Shown here: positions 3,068-45,348 of the stretch, piece after piece
How the letters are laid out: each line of letters begins with the position of its first letter
How positions within the stretch are numbered: the first letter of the stretch is position 1
Source of the DNA: a virus
Lineage: Duplodnaviria; Caudoviricetes
DNA length: 64,000 bases
Virus record (IMG/VR): IMGVR_UViG_3300020419_001132
Direction: 5' to 3' (one strand)
Made by a program: the position numbers and the translations under genes
The notes under the pieces: generated by a model
Databases searched by the model: none
What the model saw: the letters and a program-made list of their open reading frames with translations, nothing else
What the model was told of the DNA's origin: nothing

Positions 3068-6000
3068 TACACTCTCCCTACTAGAACTTCAACAACGCCA
3101 TATCCGTCGTCATCTTTTGTACCAATTGCTTTACCTATAACTGTACCTACCACTGGGTTATTATCTACTATCCCGTGACCTTCTATTGCACTAGTAACAA
3201 TTATATCACCTTTCTGTACTTTACCTAGTACCTTACAAGGTACTCTACCTTGAAGTGCTACAGCAACAACATGATCACCTTGTAAGTCGCTGTTCATTAA
3301 GTGTGCAGGATGTTCTGAAACAACACCTACTACCTTTCTATCGCCTTTGTAAATAGTTGTTGTTACTTCTTGTTCACCACCTAGTACTAATACTGTACCA
3401 CACTCGTACTCGTTGTCTGCCAAGTAATTCTCTGCCAAGTCAGCATATTGTGCTGAAGTTGCTGTTCCACTAAACGTACTTGCATAAACAGTATTCCATT
3501 TTAAACTTCCGCCACCTAAGCTTCTTGTATTATTACCATCAGGTACTAAGTTACCTGTTATTTCAGTAGCAGTAGAATTTGTCTTTAATCTTACTGATCC
3601 TCCTGTGACAAATAGTATTGTATCAGCGGCTGAGTCTGCAAATCCTGTTCCTGCACCTATTGATATACCTGTACCACTAGCATCCTTTTCTCCTGGAGCT
3701 TCTATGAATGAACTATATATCCAATCAACACCTAAGAAGCTGTTACTTCCAAAACTAGATGCTGTTTGGAAATTACTTTCTGCACCAGTAAATCCTGTTT
3801 CTCCGATGTCTAAGTTACCAGGCATACTTACTGTGATGCTAGAAGTTCCTGATGCTTCTAATATTGTAGCTTGTCCTGGAGTCTTAACCTGTAGTGTTGT
3901 ACTGCTTAATCCTAAAACTTCATAAGTAGCATCTCCGCCTAAAATTAATGCTTCTGCTTGTATAGCGCCAGCTTTTATACCTGTACCTGCAGTTTTTCTT
4001 AAAACTACTGTGTCACCTGTTGAGGCATCACTTAGTGATTTTGCACTATAAGTTGAAGCCGCTGTTCTAAGTAAAACATCTGTTCCACTTGAGTAAGCTG
4101 GGAATTCACTATCTCTTATTGCTCCACCTTCATCTAATACAGTATCAAATGTTATTGCACTTACAGCACCATCACCTGCTACACTTCTACCCAAAACTCT
4201 ATCTGTGCCAATGTGTGTTATCTTACCAGGATCAATACCATCTGTTGTACCTGTTGCTGTTTGTAATTCTATAAAACCATTTGTAGCATCAAACTCATCT
4301 GCTTTAAATGCCGCTAGTCCTAAATCTGATTGCGAAATTCCACTTGCACTTGCAATAGTTCCTGCCGCAGTCATGTTTAGTTTGCTTTGAGCAATCGCCG
4401 CTCCTGCATTTATATCTGCGTTTTCAATACTACCAGTTTCGTAATTTAATGAATACTCATTTACTGTAGCTGTTTTATTAACTACTAGGGCAACATCACT
4501 TCCTGTTGCTTTTGATACGTGTGTATATTCGTTGTATCCAACACCATTACTACTAAAGATTACATGCTGTGAAACTCCGTTGGTTAATGTTTGTCCATTT
4601 GAAAAAGTACCACTTGTAGCACTATAAATAATCTTTCTTACACTTCCTAATTGAGAATCTGTATAAGAACTTATTGTAACAATAGTTCCAGTATCACTGC
4701 CACCTGAAAGAGTATTGTTAATTACATCTCCTGCTACAAATCCGCTACCTACAGTAGGTGGTCCTGTATATAATATCTTGTTACCTGTTGCAACAAGCAT
4801 TTCGTTTGCGCCTGGAGAAGTTGTATCAAAGTCTCTTTGGTTATCTATTCTATTATAAGATTCTGTATTGTCATCGACATAGTTCTTATTTGTAGCATCT
4901 GTGCCACTTGCAGGATTTGATACGTTTTGAACAAGGTTTGACCCCATGTCCAAGTTACCTTCCATATCACTTAGTCCATTAAGCGGTAAAAAGCCTGGTC
5001 CTATTCTATTTGAACTTCCTGGAATTTGTGCACCTGATTTAATATTAAATCCTAATGCTCTATTAATATAGTTTCCTATTGCTTTTTCGGTAGGTACTGC
5101 TTGACCTGAATCGTCTGCAAACGAATCGTCTGCTGAGAATTCGTTAATTGTAACACCTTTCTTAAATCCAAGTGCATTAGCATTTGAAAGTCCTATTTCA
5201 CCTGCAAAAGTAATATCACCAGTTGCTTGGTCTACACTAAAGAATTTACCTACACGGAAGAATCCGTTTTGATCTGTACTTACAAAGAAAACCCTACCTT
5301 TTCGTCTTTCCCAAACTTGAGATGATGTTGCAGTATTTGCATCAGTATAAAATTCAGCCAATGTGTTAACCGGGTCACCTAAGATAACATTTGGATAGTT
5401 TGAATCGTTAAATCCTCCTGTACCTATTTGTGTAAAGTCGTGTCCTGTGGCTCTAAGTAGGGATATAGAAACTGTAATCTCTCCAGTTGCACCTTGTGCC
5501 GCACCTGCTGTCAACGTTCTTGTAGAAGCCGGAACAACTTCGTGTACTCCGCCACCACTGTAACCAGCTGTATCAATATTGCTTCCTGCTACCTCACCTA
5601 TGTCAATAAATGCCCACACATTGTCTGTAATAGCTTGTGTTGGTACACTATTTGCTCCTAATGCACCACTTCCACTTGCAGTAATTGTATTTGTAGTATC
5701 AAACGTTCCAACTACATCGTAAAGGTAATGTGTTGTGCCAGTGGCACTTTTTGCAACCTTTGCTGTAGCACCTGATGTAGCCTGTGTTAATGTTTCGTCT
5801 TTGACTATACTTACACTTCCAGTTGTTTTTAATTCTGCTACTGTATTATAATCTAGTACTCTATGTGTTTTAGCTTTCCAAAGGAATCGCATTCCACCTG
5901 CATACCCTGCATCTCCTGGTACCCTTGCTGGTTGTACTGAAGAGTCTTTTACAATTCTAGCAGTATCTGAGAATGTATCAGTACCGCTATTAATAGTGAT

Positions 6001-23688: not shown

Positions 23689-23763
23689 TGGCACAGGTGG
23701 AAGGAATCGAACCCTCTCTTTCAGGTTTGGAATCTGACGTGCAACCATTAACACTTCACCCAT
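23689..23763 (-). tRNA. trnW: tRNA-Trp (CCA)
   Basis: Cloverleaf ATGGGTG-AA-GTGT...GCAC-G-TCAGA-TTCCAAA-CCTGA-AAGA-GAGGG-TTCGATT-CCTTC-CACCTGT-G-CCA; encoded CCA end, G73. Confidence 0.92.
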
Positions 23764-35937: not shown

Positions 35938-36325
35938 ATTTACCTCCTGTTAGTTTATCTTTGATTTGATTTACTTCAAATATTCTATTTAAACTTATCT
36001 TATTATACAACATATTATCACCGTTTGTCAACCAATAAGTATTATCATAACTAATTAAATAGCTCATAATACTTCTAGTTTCTACATCGAAATCGTCCAA
36101 ATTAGCTATACATATATCTGACATTCTATGTACCTTAAGTAGCCAATCAGTATCTAGTGATCGTTCTTCGCTATTCTCGTAAACATATATGTTTACAGTT
36201 TCTTTTACTTCTTCTAAGATTGATTGGAGATCGCTTTTAATTTGATTATTTGGATGTATCAACAATATACTTTTTGACTTATTATAAAGGATGTCGGGTG
36301 CGGTAATTAAATTAATTTTGCTCAT
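35927..36325 (-). CDS. Hypothetical protein
   Basis: 132 aa coupled to its neighbours. Confidence 0.7.
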   Translation of the reverse strand: MSKINLITAPDILYNKSKSILLIHPNNQIKSDLQSILEEVKETVNIYVYENSEERSLDTDWLLKVHRMSDICIANLDDFDVETRSIMSYLISYDNTYWLTNGDNMLYNKISLNRIFEVNQIKDKLTGGKFEI

Positions 36326-36415
36326 CGTTCTTTATTTTTTGCCAAATAGATTTGTCATTTTGTTCTTCGTTTTGTATATATGTGTTTGGTTCAATCACTT
36401 CAGTAAGATCAGGCT

Positions 36416-38206
36416 TTATTCTTCCGCCTTTAAACGTAGTTGTTGATTCTCTACTTTGGTTAGGTAACCTTTCTTTTTTTTTGAATCTAATGTTTCTGCT
36501 GGAAGATATGACTCCCAAGGAAAACTATCTATTTTTTTATCTAAGTACCATTGTTTATAAGTTGCAATATTTTCTCCTGGATTATCTAGTTTCCAGGCTT
36601 TTTTAGCTTCTTTCCAATCATCTAATAGTTCTAGTGCTTCAATGTCTTCCGCGGTTAATCTGTATTCTTCCGACGATGACTCTTTTTTTTCGAGTTGCTC
36701 TGGCTCCGCAGGTACAAGTTTAGGTTCTTGTTCTACTTCTTTATCTTCGTATAGTTCTTGCCATTCCTCTGTTGTATCTGCTTCCTTTTTTTCAAAGTCA
36801 AATTCCAATTGATTAGGATCTTTTTCCTCTCCATATTCAAGAGCATTTTTATTCCAATCAGTTTTGTCAAACATATCTGAAGTAGGCGATCCACTAACCT
36901 TTTCCAATAGATCTTCAGTTTCAACTTCTTCCTGTTCTTCTGTATTCTTTTCGTTGTCAACAATTTTTTGTGCTCTAGCTTGTTCATACTTACGCCACTG
37001 ATCATTAGGTGACTTTGGTTTCCTAAATTCTAATGTGTATTGGCTAGCAATTAAAAGAAGTACTGCAAGTGGATCAAAAACAAAAATAATTAAAATTATA
37101 ACCCAACGTACTGCTTCTTCTAGTAAATCTCTGTTGACATCTTCTCCGTATATCAATTCTGCGATATACTTAATAGGTCCTACTTCTGCCTCTAGCTTTC
37201 TATATTCTGCTTCTAAGCTATATTTCTGTTCTGTAAGACTATCTATTTCAGCATTTGCATTTTTAATTTTTAGTAGCTCTGCTTCTATAAATTCTGTATT
37301 ATTGTCTGGAGTTACACTTCCTATGTCTTGCCTAAGTTTATTAATTAGCTTGTTAGAATCTGCAATTTCTTTTTCAGCTATGTCTCGCAGTCTTTTAATT
37401 TCATTGTTAGCCGCGACTATTAATGGAGATTCTTTTGCTTCTAATGTTCGTATAGTCTGTAGTATACTATCTCTTTTTGCAACAAGACCTTCTCTATATG
37501 CTTCTACCTGCCCCGCAGTATTAGATCCATAATTACCATCTACTCTTGTGCCAACAATGCTTTGTAAACGTTTTATACTTTCAGTGTCACGCCTATTGAG
37601 TAAATTAGTTAAAGTAGCCAAGTCAGCATCTATGCTTTCTACTTGTGCTAGGTACGGCTCAACCTTTTTGTCTTTACGTAATAACTCTTGTTTTATAACT
37701 TCTTGTTGTTCAGCTACTAATGGCTTGATTCTTTCATAAGCAGTATCAATTCTTTTTTGTTCTCTATCAATTTGATCCTGTATAGTATCGTTTTGATTTG
37801 CTCCTGCATTTTCTGTTTTTGTAATCTTAGCTTCTGCTCTAACTATTATAGCATCATACCTGGCAAGGTCTTTTTCTATACGAGCAATCTGTTCAATGCT
37901 TTCATTACTAGCACTAGTTTGTTCTATATGTGCTTTGGATAGAAAACCAAAGATACCCATGCTAGTTATTACCATGAGAAGAACTACTGCTATACTTAAA
38001 TATGTTTTAAGCCACCAGGCCGCTTGTTTCCAATACCTATGAAGCCAAACAGCCGTAACTAATTTGCCAACTTCTAACACACCGCCCATCACCATAATAG
38101 GTATTGCCGCGGCGGCAAAAATAGCAACCAAACCTGCTATTGAATAGTATATTGCAACTGCACTAATGCATAATGCAGTTATTAGTGTTAATATCGCTAA
38201 GAACAT
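36416..38206 (-). CDS. Inner-membrane coiled-coil protein with peptidoglycan-binding-like motif
   Basis: Three N-terminal TMs, long coiled coil, LQSIVGTRVDGNYGSNT, further TM, acidic tail; start MFLAIL; possible -1 extension to 36312. Confidence 0.75.
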   Translation of the reverse strand: MFLAILTLITALCISAVAIYYSIAGLVAIFAAAAIPIMVMGGVLEVGKLVTAVWLHRYWKQAAWWLKTYLSIAVVLLMVITSMGIFGFLSKAHIEQTSASNESIEQIARIEKDLARYDAIIVRAEAKITKTENAGANQNDTIQDQIDREQKRIDTAYERIKPLVAEQQEVIKQELLRKDKKVEPYLAQVESIDADLATLTNLLNRRDTESIKRLQSIVGTRVDGNYGSNTAGQVEAYREGLVAKRDSILQTIRTLEAKESPLIVAANNEIKRLRDIAEKEIADSNKLINKLRQDIGSVTPDNNTEFIEAELLKIKNANAEIDSLTEQKYSLEAEYRKLEAEVGPIKYIAELIYGEDVNRDLLEEAVRWVIILIIFVFDPLAVLLLIASQYTLEFRKPKSPNDQWRKYEQARAQKIVDNEKNTEEQEEVETEDLLEKVSGSPTSDMFDKTDWNKNALEYGEEKDPNQLEFDFEKKEADTTEEWQELYEDKEVEQEPKLVPAEPEQLEKKESSSEEYRLTAEDIEALELLDDWKEAKKAWKLDNPGENIATYKQWYLDKKIDSFPWESYLPAETLDSKKKKGYLTKVENQQLRLKAEE

Positions 38207-38210
38207 ACAA

Positions 38211-38216
38211 TATTTA
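38211..38216 (-). promoter_or_regulatory. Late promoter TAAATA, predicted leaderless start
   Basis: TAAATA-TTGT-ATG(38206). Confidence 0.6.
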
Positions 38217-38222
38217 CCTGAA

Positions 38223-38687
38223 TCATGACCTGGAGATAAATGTCCATTTATCATTTACCGGACTATAACAAGCTCTGTCGGAAAAATCTTTACTCTTTCC
38301 ACCATATCTTAAATTAGTAAACAATACATGACAAATTTTATTTCCTTGTGGATATCTTGCAACAAGTTTTACAACACCACTTGCACTAGTATCAGGACTT
38401 ACCCATGTACAAGTTTGTCCAGGATCTGTCTCTTCCAAGGCAAAAAAGATACATCTTTGATGTCTTTCTCTATCTTCCCTTGGAATAGTGTAAGCACTAG
38501 CATTACCCCAATTATATATTGTACCATATATACTTGTTCCTGTGTTGGTTCTGTCTGCGGTTGTGTATTCTCCGTAGTAAGGACTACTACTACAACCAAC
38601 TAGACTAATAAGAATACCGAGCGTCGACAGCTTCCCAATTAACGTTGCCGTCTTTTGTCGGAAATGCACAAAGAAATCCTTTAACAT
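38223..38687 (-). CDS. Lipoprotein, 17-kDa surface-antigen-like
   Basis: Lipobox LVGC; CTWVSP...CHVL...RAC...W pattern; start uncertain. Confidence 0.65.
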   Translation of the reverse strand: MLKDFFVHFRQKTATLIGKLSTLGILISLVGCSSSPYYGEYTTADRTNTGTSIYGTIYNWGNASAYTIPREDRERHQRCIFFALEETDPGQTCTWVSPDTSASGVVKLVARYPQGNKICHVLFTNLRYGGKSKDFSDRACYSPVNDKWTFISRS

Positions 38688-38949
38688 TTGCTTCCCTTCC
38701 TTTAATCATTACAAGTTTTTCATAAGGACGGCATTCTTTTGCCATCCCGGTTTGTTTAACAAAATGATTTACTCTTGGCTTATCTGTACAGTCAATTGTC
38801 TTTTTACTGTTTACAGTTGAACCATTTTCTATTTCAATTTTTTCGTCAGTATAACAGTACTGAGGTTCTACAGCCGCGGTGTTTATTCCGGAACTTGCAC
38901 AACCTCCAAGTACACTAATTGTTATTAGACAGAGCAAGTACTTTATCAT
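38605..38949 (-). CDS. Lipoprotein
   Basis: Lipobox LGGC; four further Cys. Confidence 0.7.
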   Translation of the reverse strand: MIKYLLCLITISVLGGCASSGINTAAVEPQYCYTDEKIEIENGSTVNSKKTIDCTDKPRVNHFVKQTGMAKECRPYEKLVMIKGREANVKGFLCAFPTKDGNVNWEAVDARYSY

Positions 38950-39439
38950 CTCGAGCCTCTGAAATTAGTCTATCAAAAACGTCTAATGGCATTTTGATAC
39001 GTACATACGTATGAACTCTGCCTGTATTGCTTAGTTCATATGCATATCGTTTCACTTCTAAATGCTCTCTTATTACAGTATCTTTAACAGAATGTTCAAC
39101 TCTTGTTCTAGTTGTTCTAACATCATTCTTGATATCAACAACTGTCGAAGCATTAACAGTTCCGTTAATACGTTCTGCAAAACCTTTTACGGCGAATGCA
39201 TAAGCCTGAGACTCACTTGCCTGTTCAAACTTACTTTCACCCATGCCACAAGCATAAGCATAATCAGTCTTCCAAAACAACCAACCTTCTTTGCCGATTT
39301 GTTCACAATCCATGTACCATTTAGGATTAGCCTTAGTTTCACGGACTTCTATTTCTTTCATTGTACTACAAGCACTCATCATAGCAAGTGTTGTTACAAG
39401 TACGCCAGTTTTAAAAATGCCTTTCACGGTTACCTCCAT
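38915..39439 (-). CDS. Lipoprotein, LPP20-like
   Basis: Lipobox MSAC; PKWY...ACGMG...QAYAFA pattern. Confidence 0.65.
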   Translation of the reverse strand: MEVTVKGIFKTGVLVTTLAMMSACSTMKEIEVRETKANPKWYMDCEQIGKEGWLFWKTDYAYACGMGESKFEQASESQAYAFAVKGFAERINGTVNASTVVDIKNDVRTTRTRVEHSVKDTVIREHLEVKRYAYELSNTGRVHTYVRIKMPLDVFDRLISEARDDKVLALSNNN

Positions 39440-39465
39440 ATTAAAAGCCTATTCATAATATATAC

Positions 39466-39504
39466 ATAATACTATACAATTAAATGAAAGTCAACCTATT
39501 TTGG
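39466..39504 (-). promoter_or_regulatory. Sigma70-type promoter with upstream CCAAAA box
   Basis: CCAAAA-TAGG-TTGACT-17-TATTAT. Confidence 0.65.
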
Positions 39505-39509
39505 ATAAC

Positions 39510-40151
39510 CTAGTTGTCCAAAAGTAATGATATCTGATTTATTTTACTTTGAATAAGGTCAACGTAGTTTGGATTTGTGCTCCAAGGACCTAGGTGTTCA
39601 ACTTGTTTGTTAATGTCAATGACACCTTGATACTGTTGTTCTTTTCGTTCTTGTCTGAAACCTTCATAAACTTTTAGTGTATTTAAAATCCTTACTGCTT
39701 CTTTAACAGACTGGCATTTTGTAATGAAAGTTTTTACACCCCATTCTGCATTAGGATTTTCTTTTGGCTTCATTTGTGCTTGACCTTTATCCCATGTTCT
39801 AATACCAAACAAATTATTTCCTTTTATTGCAAACCTACTTGTTCCGTATCCTGATTCTACTACTGCCATTGCTATAATAATTTTCCTATCAATCCTCTCT
39901 AACGGAGGTGTGAATAAATTTACAAATGACATGCATTTATTAACTGACAAAATAAAAGATTCCCTGTCGCTATAAATCATTTCTGGTTCAAAGAATCCGT
40001 ACCCTTCCCATTCTTTTTGAACTTGTGCAACAGAATCATTTTTTATTTGTTGCATCAGATGTTTGTTAGGATTTATTGTGCCATAATGGTACGAGGCGAC
40101 ACTAAATGCCGCCAGTAGAACCACTGTTATTATTTTAGATATTATTGCCAT
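39510..40151 (-). CDS. Glucosaminidase (GH73, Bax/FlgJ-like)
   Basis: N-terminal TM; IAMAVVESGYGTSRFA...NNLFGIRTW, STNPNY. Confidence 0.85.
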   Translation of the reverse strand: MAIISKIITVVLLAAFSVASYHYGTINPNKHLMQQIKNDSVAQVQKEWEGYGFFEPEMIYSDRESFILSVNKCMSFVNLFTPPLERIDRKIIIAMAVVESGYGTSRFAIKGNNLFGIRTWDKGQAQMKPKENPNAEWGVKTFITKCQSVKEAVRILNTLKVYEGFRQERKEQQYQGVIDINKQVEHLGPWSTNPNYVDLIQSKINQISLLLDN

Positions 40152-43364: not shown

Positions 43365-44830
43365 ATTTCAACTCCATAATTTGCACTCCATCTAAGTGCA
43401 TCCTCTTTTGTATTTACTAAAGGTTCGCCTTTGATATTTAAACTAGTGTTAAGTAACATAGGACATCCTGTTGTTTCATACCAACGTTCTAACAGTTGTC
43501 TGAATCCGCTATTATCATCTCTAGATACTGTTTGAACTCTGCTCGTGTTATCGTAGTGTGTGATGGCAGGAAACGTATCAGGGTCTCTACACGTTGCTGT
43601 ATATTGCATGTACGGGCCAGTGATGCCTGCAAAATAGTCTTTTGTATGTTCTTCAAGTATTGCTGGTGCAAAAGGTCTGAATGCTTCTCTTCTTTTAAGT
43701 TTGTTAACTCTGTCTTTAACATTCTTTCCTCTTGGATCGGCCAGTATACTTCTGTTGCCCAAAGCCCTAGGCCCAAACTCAGCCCTACCACTAGCAACGG
43801 CAGTAATATGATTTTTTTGTAATTCTTGTAAAATTTTTTCAACAGGGTAATTTCCATTTATGTTATGTCCTAAATATGGACCAGGCCAATCTATATGTCT
43901 TTGCCATTTTGCCAAAACACATCCTATGGCACTTCCAGCATCTCCTGGGTTTGGCATGATCCAAACATTTTTAAATCTTTTGTGTGCTAACGGATTAGCC
44001 ACACAGTTTAAAATACAACCTCCCATTAATACTAAGTTTTCTTTTTTTGTAGTATTAGCAGTATAATCTATTAAACTTGCAAAAATTTCTTCGTATATCT
44101 GTTGTACAGCCGCGGCAATATCTGCAAAGTCCTTGTCACTATTTAAGTCGGGTGCCCAATCTTTGCATCCTCTGTGGCAATCTCTTGAAAACATTACATA
44201 TGGATCATCAGCAGATGGCATTTTAGCGATGAAGTCATCAATAATTCTTTGATATAATCTATCGGGATCTCCTATAGCCGCCATGCCCATTAACACATAT
44301 TCATGTTCTTGTGGAATTAATCCTATACGTTGGGTCATGGCACTATACCACATACCAACACTATCAGGATAACGTTGGCTTCTTACCTTTTTCAATGTAG
44401 GACCTTCACCCTTCCATATACTAAGAGTCTCCCATTCTCCTATACTATCGATACACAATACAGCCGCATCAGTATATGGACTGGTGTAGTATCCAGCAGA
44501 AGCATGACTAAGATGATGTCCAGTACTGATGCTTCTTGGAGCTTCTTTGTAAAACTTTCTCATATGTTGGGTGGGAGATTCTTTTTTTAGAAGATGATAT
44601 TGCCCTGCAAATAGTTGTCTTGTCTTTTTTAACAAAGGTTTTTCGTAGAAGTAAACCTTGTTTGGTACGCCAAATTCTAATATAGCATCAGAAAGTAACC
44701 AGTGATTTAGGTTTTTATCGTTTTTAATACGACTGTAACGTTCTGCATGAGAAGCAAATTTTAATTCATTATTTACGAATACTGCTAAACTAGCATCATG
44801 TGACAGTCCACTCCAGCCCCATGTAATCAT
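43349..44830 (-). CDS. O-carbamoyltransferase (NodU/CmcH/TobZ family)
   Basis: HDASLA, HHLSHA, GGCILN, EFGPRALGNRSILADPR, REAFRPFAP, LLNTSLN; start MITWG. Confidence 0.93.
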   Translation of the reverse strand: MITWGWSGLSHDASLAVFVNNELKFASHAERYSRIKNDKNLNHWLLSDAILEFGVPNKVYFYEKPLLKKTRQLFAGQYHLLKKESPTQHMRKFYKEAPRSISTGHHLSHASAGYYTSPYTDAAVLCIDSIGEWETLSIWKGEGPTLKKVRSQRYPDSVGMWYSAMTQRIGLIPQEHEYVLMGMAAIGDPDRLYQRIIDDFIAKMPSADDPYVMFSRDCHRGCKDWAPDLNSDKDFADIAAAVQQIYEEIFASLIDYTANTTKKENLVLMGGCILNCVANPLAHKRFKNVWIMPNPGDAGSAIGCVLAKWQRHIDWPGPYLGHNINGNYPVEKILQELQKNHITAVASGRAEFGPRALGNRSILADPRGKNVKDRVNKLKRREAFRPFAPAILEEHTKDYFAGITGPYMQYTATCRDPDTFPAITHYDNTSRVQTVSRDDNSGFRQLLERWYETTGCPMLLNTSLNIKGEPLVNTKEDALRWSANYGVEICLPE

Positions 44831-44835
44831 ATTAA

Positions 44836-44841
44836 TATTTA
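44836..44841 (-). promoter_or_regulatory. Late promoter TAAATA, predicted leaderless start
   Basis: CTAAATA-TTAAT-ATG(44830), identical to the site at 43245. Confidence 0.6.
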
Positions 44842-44849
44842 GTTTGGAA

Positions 44850-45161
44850 AAAATGGCCCGTTCTGTTGCCCGGTGGAACCATACCGCGAAGCTCACCGGT
44901 TATTAAGCGGCAATAAGTTCACGATCCATAGAAAGATCTAAAGAAGTGAACGCTCCAGGTGCAAAATTATCGTTTGCATTTGTAGTGTTTGTTCGCGTTA
45001 ACCGAGCTTACATCCGGACAACTCCACGTTTCTATTAACTGCCTGTCGATCCTATTTCAGCCCCATCATAAGCACACTCTCATTCTCAGTGTGTTTATGG
45101 TGGAGCTGTCGGGTACCGCCCCCGAGTCCAGTCCAACTTTCGAATTGCTTCAACGTTGCAA
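44850..45161 (-). ncRNA. ssrA: Circularly permuted two-piece tmRNA (alphaproteobacterial type)
   Basis: Acceptor piece ...GACTCGGGGGCGGTACCCGACAGCTCCACCA (ends 45098), hairpin intervening segment, coding piece GGGGCTGAAATAGGATCGAC from 45064; tag ANDNFAPGAFTSLDLSMDRELIAA at 44977-44903; TAAATA at 45166-71. Outer ends approximate. Confidence 0.9.
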
Positions 45162-45171
45162 TACGTATTTA

Positions 45172-45348
45172 TTACATATTATTTTTCTTTTCTTGGACTT
45201 CCTTACGTCTTTCTTTTGTAAGTTTACCAAGATCTCCCAATGCTTTTCTAGCACGGGCCGCCGCCGCTTTAACACCTTTATCTTCAAATGTTTGTGATTC
45301 AGCAACGTAATTATTAAACGCCTGCACGATCTGTTCGTGTGTACTCAT
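45172..45348 (-). CDS. Histone H1-like (Hc1-like) small basic protein
   Basis: Manual 58 aa: MSTHEQIVQAFNNYVAESQTFEDKGVKAAAARARKALGDLGKLTKERRKEVQEKKNNM; SD AAGGAG. Confidence 0.7.
   Translation of the reverse strand: MSTHEQIVQAFNNYVAESQTFEDKGVKAAAARARKALGDLGKLTKERRKEVQEKKNNM

Follow-up and report, generated by a model that had tools for sequence, protein, structure and literature searches.

Evidence for recoding at a conserved nine-adenine run giving two C-termini in a membrane coiled-coil protein family of ocean phages

The 64,000 nucleotide (nt) stretch of DNA analyzed here (hereinafter, the window; IMG/VR record IMGVR_UViG_3300020419_001132, Caudoviricetes), an AT-rich sequence with 36.5% G+C, encodes on its minus strand a membrane coiled-coil protein which, on the evidence presented below, appears to be made with two alternative C-termini through recoding at a run of nine A's. 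From the N- to the C-terminus, the main open reading frame (ORF) encompasses transmembrane (TM) helices, a long coiled coil, a further TM helix, an acidic disordered linker, a helical C-terminal module and an end segment of 18 codons (Table 1). The run lies immediately before the end segment; its A's occupy positions 36482-36474 and are followed by a G (36473), and the heptamer A_AAA_AAG, of the X_XXY_YYZ type, is accordingly found at 36479-36473. Between the 0-frame stop and the next ATG there is a gap of 90 nt, across which the -1 frame remains open. The initial annotation of this locus, which had put forward a candidate -1 frameshift, listed the A9G run, the heptamer, both stops, the 90-nt gap, the 53 codons of the -1 frame and the 14-nt overlap with the following gene, and all these details and their coordinates proved correct. 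The density of -1-frame stops within these genes is 0.113 per codon, corresponding to a probability of approximately 0.0017 that 53 codons remain open. The A9G site is the sole A/T run of at least 9 nt in the window, compared with 4.5 expected under a first-order Markov model, and runs of at least 8 nt number 4 compared with 12.9 expected under the same model, two of the four being located in the gene for the membrane protein. The arrangement as a whole is more than would be expected by chance. All four runs of at least 8 nt consist of T on the plus strand.

Table 1. Coordinates of the features at the locus, in window numbering
Feature	Position	Strand	Description
Main 0-frame ORF, 612 amino acids (aa); short isoform	36416..38254	minus	ORF list; homologs in 160 fetched loci; AF2 (AlphaFold) model of an in-frame relative; exact protein on 20 contigs
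A9G slippery run	36473..36482	minus	Proposed frame-change site; 0 frame reads TCA AAA AAA AAG (36484-36473)
Dual-coded 18 codons	36419..36472	minus	0 frame: conserved Y-[IL]-[MT]-K...Q-x-[RK] end of the short isoform; -1 frame: linker
0-frame stop TAA	36416..36418	minus	18 codons past the run; overlaps the -1 codons AGA ATA A.. that open the conserved tail
-1 extension, 53 codons (36473 to 36315) and stop (36314-36312)	36312..36473	minus	Predicted C-terminus of the long isoform
Conserved tail, -1 frame	36327..36422	minus	[RK]-x-K-P-D-L-T-E-V, Y-x-Q-N-x-E-Q, S-I-W; profile match E = 7e-21
Downstream gene, 132 aa	35927..36325	minus	ATG at 36325; the -1 extension runs 14 nt into it
Second run, A8	36683..36690	minus	Encodes E-K-K-E where the C-terminal module begins; run of at least 8 A's at this position in 72/76 loci
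GGTT-ACCT-AACC hairpin	36458..36469	minus	4 base pairs, weak, no conservation

The gene for the membrane coiled-coil protein is common in ocean viromes, and 166 related loci were fetched from IMG/VR and metagenomes. Two small profiles, one for the module that precedes the run in the 0 frame and the other for the tail, were scored on the three forward frames of each locus; the counts of frame states given below refer to the 76 non-identical loci that contain both the module and the tail. In 49 of these loci, the tail shares the reading frame of the protein body, and in 27, including the window (hereinafter split loci), it lies in the -1 frame; it is never found in the +1 frame (0/76). All 27 split loci carry AAA AAA AAG in the identical phase and at the identical place, within a run of nine A's in 24 of them, of ten A's in two (both with CAA as the codon before it) and of eight A's in one (L137). 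Among the in-frame loci, a run of at least 8 A's is absent from this site in 48 of the 49, the exception being L049, with A10 located nine nt upstream. Where the two lysines are retained in in-frame relatives, the sequence is GAA AAG AAA, CCA AAG AAA or a plain A6; AAG accounts for only 21% of the lysine codons in these genes, yet it is the codon with which these relatives break the run. In 26 of the 27 split loci, AAA AAA AAG is preceded by another A, which is supplied by six codons (CCA, CTA, TCA, CAA, GCA and TTA) for five amino acids; because this A is kept through so many different codons, the conserved element appears to be the stretch of nine A's and not just the heptamer. The run is held even in split loci whose proteins are only 43-44% identical to that of the window. 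Alignment of homologs, which the initial annotation had suggested for examining the slippery site and both frames, thus revealed the run together with a -1 coding signal in each of the split loci.

Several lines of evidence indicate that, as judged from its pattern of substitution and conservation, the -1 tail evolves as a coding sequence. None of the 49 in-frame proteins departs from Y, Q, N, E and Q at the corresponding positions of the tail, and few other positions of the whole C-terminal region are invariant; the split lineages therefore need some means of expressing the tail. Matches to the tail profile have E-values from 1e-11 to 1e-22, with split loci scoring as well as or better than the in-frame loci. 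Pairwise differences between the tails, when assigned to positions 1, 2 and 3 of the -1 codons, amount to 1614, 1464 and 4010, respectively, which is a clear third-position bias. The stretch from the run to the tail is free of stops in the -1 frame in all 27 split loci, whereas the +1 frame is interrupted by at least one stop in each of them. The linker that the -1 frame reads from the dual-coded codons, and which would belong to the long isoform, is poorly conserved and yet always open. In the 0 frame, the same 18 codons encode a conserved segment that is homologous to an in-frame segment of three relatives (L139, L141 and L145). Conservation of this kind suggests that both frames past the run are used.

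The position of the frame change can be bounded by stops. A -1-frame stop precedes the run by 3 nt in L110 and L113, and in L137 the first two A's of the run combine with the preceding T to form a TAA in the -1 frame; on the other side, the 0-frame stop of L001 and L002 is located 22 nt after the G. The run is the sole element common to the interval bounded by those stops, and the comparison of these loci pins the putative shift site to the run. L139, L141 and L145 read the 18-residue segment and the tail in one frame, so that, relative to these three loci, the genomic break is at the 0-frame stop. In contrast, in L049 and L058, which are closely related to the split locus L069, the body of the protein runs directly into the counterpart of the -1 linker followed by the tail; these two loci appear to encode the predicted long form in a hard-wired state, which would place the junction at the run. 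The alternative of a shift located at the 0-frame stop was considered and rejected: there is no conserved slippery sequence at the stop, the run co-varies with the split state, and L049 and L058 read the -1 linker in frame. By the same comparison, the long form would not be a simple addition to the short form but would have the 18-residue segment swapped for a loose linker and the tail.

Taken together, these observations support recoding at the A-run that yields two C-termini, as the initial annotation had proposed: the run is retained in all split loci, the tail behaves as coding sequence, and an independent start for it is excluded in many loci. The following sequence of events is envisaged. 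When the DNA is read without slippage, the product would be the 612-aa short form that ends in the conserved 18-residue segment. When the host RNA polymerase slips on the nine A's, a fraction of the transcripts would gain one extra A, and ribosomes translating these transcripts in the normal way would reach the tail and produce a long form of 647 aa, in which the 18 residues are replaced by the loose linker and the K-P-D-L-T-E-V ... Y-x-Q-N-x-E-Q ... S-I-W tail. The tail would be a flexible docking peptide attached to a probably cytoplasmic module, with a dose set by the rate of slippage, and ribosomes would arrive at the start of the next gene, which the extension overlaps, only through the shifted expression. 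We infer, rather than observe, that the slipping agent is the polymerase and not the ribosome, and the same applies to the isoform ratio, the role of the tail and the coupling to the next gene.

The choice between the polymerase and the ribosome is the least certain part of this scheme. We lean toward RNA polymerase slippage on A9, giving it somewhat better than even chances on the sequence patterns described here, with a ribosomal -1 shift as the next candidate and with the possibility that both contribute. Polymerase slippage is favored because there is neither an RNA structure nor an element similar to a Shine-Dalgarno (SD) sequence, and because the ninth A is kept. No conserved structure was detected downstream of the run: RNAalifold applied to 24 sequences gave 0 pairs and 0 kcal/mol. 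In the window, the minimum free energy (MFE) of the 50 nt after the G is -4.2 kcal/mol (z = 0.08 against shuffled sequence), and the z-scores of the MFE of the 50 nt downstream in the individual loci are mostly near zero, with a few of about -2 and no shared fold. The initial annotation had pointed to a small GGTT/AACC stem after the run; the stem exists but, with its 4 base pairs, unremarkable folding energy and lack of conservation, it does not qualify as a conserved stimulator. With respect to an upstream stimulator, an SD core of 4-5 nt was found within 22 nt upstream of the heptamer in only one of the 27 split loci. Also counted in favor of the polymerase are the breaking of the run by AAG in in-frame relatives, the presence in the gene of a second conserved run (A8-A10) and the depletion of long A/T runs elsewhere; the flanks of the related loci contain 18 runs of at least 8 nt in 365 kb, which indicates that long runs are avoided. 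A length of nine nt matches that of the RNA-DNA hybrid. In bacteria, runs of nine A's or T's support efficient slippage, and selection against such runs is evident at 9 nt (PMC5009743; PMC1088944).

Several considerations weigh against the preference for polymerase slippage or, more generally, against the two-isoform interpretation. The phase of A_AAA_AAG is the one required for a ribosomal shift in all 27 split loci, and one of these (L137) has only eight A's; the conserved phase and the conserved G fit the ribosomal model at least as well. The 27 split loci are related to each other, and the counts accordingly do not represent independent events. Finally, the need for two forms is not universal because most of the relatives have the tail hard-wired, whereas four others (L019, L022, L031 and L076) stop a few codons past P-W-E-x-Y and have the tail in no frame. 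Two additional loci (L066 and L074) have a different, longer C-terminal extension.

The best-surviving alternative is a programmed -1 ribosomal frameshift on A_AAA_AAG in unedited mRNA, whereby two lysine tRNAs would slip back by one base and generate an identical long protein; we regard this as possible but distinctly less probable than polymerase slippage. The heptamer is correctly phased, with AAG as the A-site codon, in every split locus, it is retained by L137 with its shorter run, and A_AAA_AAG is highly prone to shifting in E. coli (PMC4066793; PMC5009743); moreover, a ribosomal shift could act alongside polymerase slippage. The arguments on the other side are the lack of a conserved downstream hairpin or pseudoknot, the near absence of the SD-like element, and the two additional conserved A's beyond the heptamer, for which a ribosomal shift has no need and which are maintained through six different preceding codons. 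The dnaX-type ribosomal shift put first in the initial annotation is thus weakened by the missing stem and SD element, whereas transcriptional slippage, mentioned there as the alternative, becomes the more probable mechanism. An additional hint comes from L049 (positions 5150-5400) and L058, the sisters of L069, in which a frame resembling the end segment of the short form is open in the +1 frame beside an A10, which in L049 is located nine nt upstream of the now-broken run. These two loci may produce the same pair of isoforms with the default reversed, such that the long form is encoded and slippage on A10 leads to the short ending. The +1 frame is suggestive of the polymerase, and no more than suggestive, because only insertions or deletions of A could reach that frame, which is beyond the range of a -1 ribosomal shift. 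If this is the case, the isoform pair has been conserved while the direction of the frameshift was inverted, which would be a strong argument for polymerase over ribosomal slippage.

Much less probable is that the tail is a tolerated broken end, that is, the remnant of an old indel subject to drift, with slippage as unselected noise, or else that the A-run is an on/off switch at the DNA level. Some relatives do live without the tail, and the frame state has changed several times on the tree. However, the tail is equally conserved in split and in-frame loci and shows the third-position bias, the -1 linker is open in all split loci, A9 is held across lineages with as little as 43-44% identity to the window protein, and no A10 variant of the window phage was found in the protein collection searched.

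A still weaker case can be made for the tail being a separate small protein, translated from its own start or by reinitiation past the 0-frame stop, without any frame change; we consider this highly improbable. The window and 14 other loci do contain a TTG or ATG that lies 18-51 nt before the run in the -1 frame and arises from the conserved P-W codons. However, in 12 of the 27 split loci, the open stretch of the -1 frame before the tail contains no ATG, GTG or TTG; in three loci, the -1 frame opens only at the run or 3 nt before it; no conserved start is found past the 0-frame stop; and the tail is fused in frame to the same protein in 49 relatives.

Finally, an error of sequencing or assembly, with a true run of A10 and a gene that is simply in frame, can be considered extremely improbable even though homopolymers are error-prone on some platforms and the assessment was made here from contigs: the exact 612-aa protein of the 0 frame is present on 20 contigs from five source collections (NCBI, JGI/IMG, Logan, ENA and Tara), the longest of 285 kb, which effectively rules out an assembly error, and 27 diverged loci from many samples share the split state. 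Furthermore, A9 is the correct genomic register because the 0-frame segment past the run is a conserved and homologous protein segment. A near-identical, hard-wired (A10) long form of the window phage was not found in a collection of 5.8 billion proteins, which is weak negative evidence.

The evolution of the frame state was examined on a tree of the protein body, from which the tail region was excluded. Parsimony reconstruction yields nine changes of the split state, at least six of which are forced by well-supported branches, and forcing the 27 split loci into one clade costs 1029 log-likelihood units (approximately unbiased test, p = 7e-5). Given that the split state is not monophyletic, either repeated switching or exchange of the C-terminal module by recombination has to be invoked. 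The joining of the parts differs among the in-frame versions, which contain either the end segment plus the tail, just one of the two, or the linker in frame. Such variation suggests that a split ancestor may have been resolved several times independently.

The family has another A-run, located at the start of the C-terminal module. This second run, which is nearly universal (Table 1), occurs in three codon phases; lengths of A9-A10 are frequent among the in-frame loci (24/49) and rare among the split loci (2/27), and the other two frames stop within 1-20 codons of it. By analogy with dnaX of Thermus, the second run is a possible additional slippage site at which the protein would be truncated; codon bias on the conserved K-K explains part of the pattern. 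A more general and decidedly speculative extension, to which we would assign a rather low probability, is that the whole family sets the ratio of tail-bearing to tail-less protein by polymerase slippage at two conserved poly-A sites, with either form as the default.

The AlphaFold model of the in-frame relative L139 (mean predicted local distance difference test score (pLDDT) of 70.7) consists, from the N- to the C-terminus, of membrane helices, a long coiled coil (pLDDT >90), a membrane helix and a disordered acidic stretch of ~100 residues, followed by a small helical module (pLDDT >90), the 18-residue segment folded as a beta-hairpin (pLDDT of about 60) and the tail, which forms a flexible stretch and a short terminal helix. 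When the isolated C-terminal module was compared to the PDB in a fold search, no match was found; the mean pLDDT of its model was 64.7, indicating moderate confidence. Basic residues follow the last membrane helix, so that, under the positive-inside rule, the module and the tail are probably cytoplasmic.

Searches of Pfam and PHROGs returned nothing above the threshold for the 612-aa protein, the -1 ORF or the 132-aa product of the downstream gene. A match to Tetraspanin (PF00335) with 24.8 bits, against a gathering threshold of 32.1, was limited to the N-terminal TM region, and the protein was not assigned to this family. Only viral hypothetical clusters were found in the ESM Atlas, and megablast detected no near-identical phage records. 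The closest cultured relative is Pelagibacter phage Mosig, which encodes a short homolog that lacks the C-terminal module; directly upstream of this short homolog, Mosig carries a glucosaminidase gene. In the window, the genes that precede the membrane protein gene (38223-40151, minus strand) likewise include a glucosaminidase (PF01832, E = 4e-15) with an N-terminal hydrophobic stretch, along with three overlapping small genes with lipoprotein-like signal sequences. It seems plausible that the membrane protein belongs to an envelope-acting module or has an envelope-associated role.

In every locus whose downstream ORFs were read, the 132-aa gene adjoins the membrane protein gene, and the tail ORF extends over its start. 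Translation of the 132-aa gene may depend on the upstream ORF because there is no obvious SD sequence before its ATG in the window. A gene for bS21 is also located downstream of the membrane protein gene.

There are several precedents for an arrangement of this kind. In dnaX (tau/gamma) of Thermus thermophilus, slippage on a conserved nine-base run produces two C-termini with no other signal (PMC5009743). The case described here shares with it the nine-base homopolymer (A's in the mRNA) and the derivation of two C-termini from one gene; the difference is that in Thermus the DNA encodes the long form and slippage truncates it, whereas here the short form is encoded and slippage would open the 53 codons, and the genes are unrelated. 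In tssM1 of Citrobacter rodentium (and tssM of Yersinia), slippage on poly-A leads to two length variants, both of which are made and needed (PMC4256274). The points of resemblance are an inner-membrane protein, a conserved C-terminal part that lies in another frame past a poly-A run, and in-frame orthologs elsewhere. The run of tssM1 is A11, and its product has a large periplasmic domain; our case differs in having A9G, a 53-residue tail and a swap of 18 residues, and the change of frame is read from sequence. In Shigella spa13/spa32, the slippage extension overlaps the start of the next gene and affects its expression (PMC5009743). The overlap is present in our case as well (14 nt in the window), but spa13/spa32 is a bacterial type III secretion gene, and for the phage locus the effect on the downstream gene is only an inference.

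With dnaX of E. coli, the family shares the heptamer A_AAA_AAG in the same phase, but in the E. coli gene there are six A's, an SD-like element and a stem-loop, and the shifted product is the shorter one, whereas here there are nine A's and neither of the two signals was found. The G/GT tail assembly chaperones are similar in being a conserved case of recoding in tailed phages that sets how much of a C-terminally extended protein is made relative to a short one; in contrast, our case involves a gene for a membrane coiled-coil protein beside glucosaminidase and lipoprotein genes, with a different slip sequence and no homology to G/GT.

Thus, this kind of event is known, whereas the site in this gene family is new; literature searches found no report of a slip site in the family. 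Further interest is added by the repeated switching between the split and fused states and by the 18 dual-coded codons. Gene callers assign the wrong C-terminus, or only one of the two, to this widespread gene of ocean phages, and the exact -1 ORF of the window is absent from a collection of 15 billion proteins. The split and hard-wired versions are interleaved on the tree, and the run comes and goes with the split state, which makes the family a clean natural experiment. It appears to be a good system for studying how run length relates to the isoform ratio and why a membrane protein would need a docking tail in sub-stoichiometric amounts. Few conserved recoding events are known in phages, and the family adds to them one that involves neither a tail protein nor a transposase.

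Other genes near the locus encode Hsp20, ClpS, a protein similar to GMP reductase and a 2OG-Fe(II) oxygenase, in addition to the bS21 mentioned above. ARAGORN predicts a permuted, two-piece tmRNA with a tag of 24 residues at 44812-45190 of the window and, as the only tRNA beside it, a tRNA-Trp at 23689-23763.

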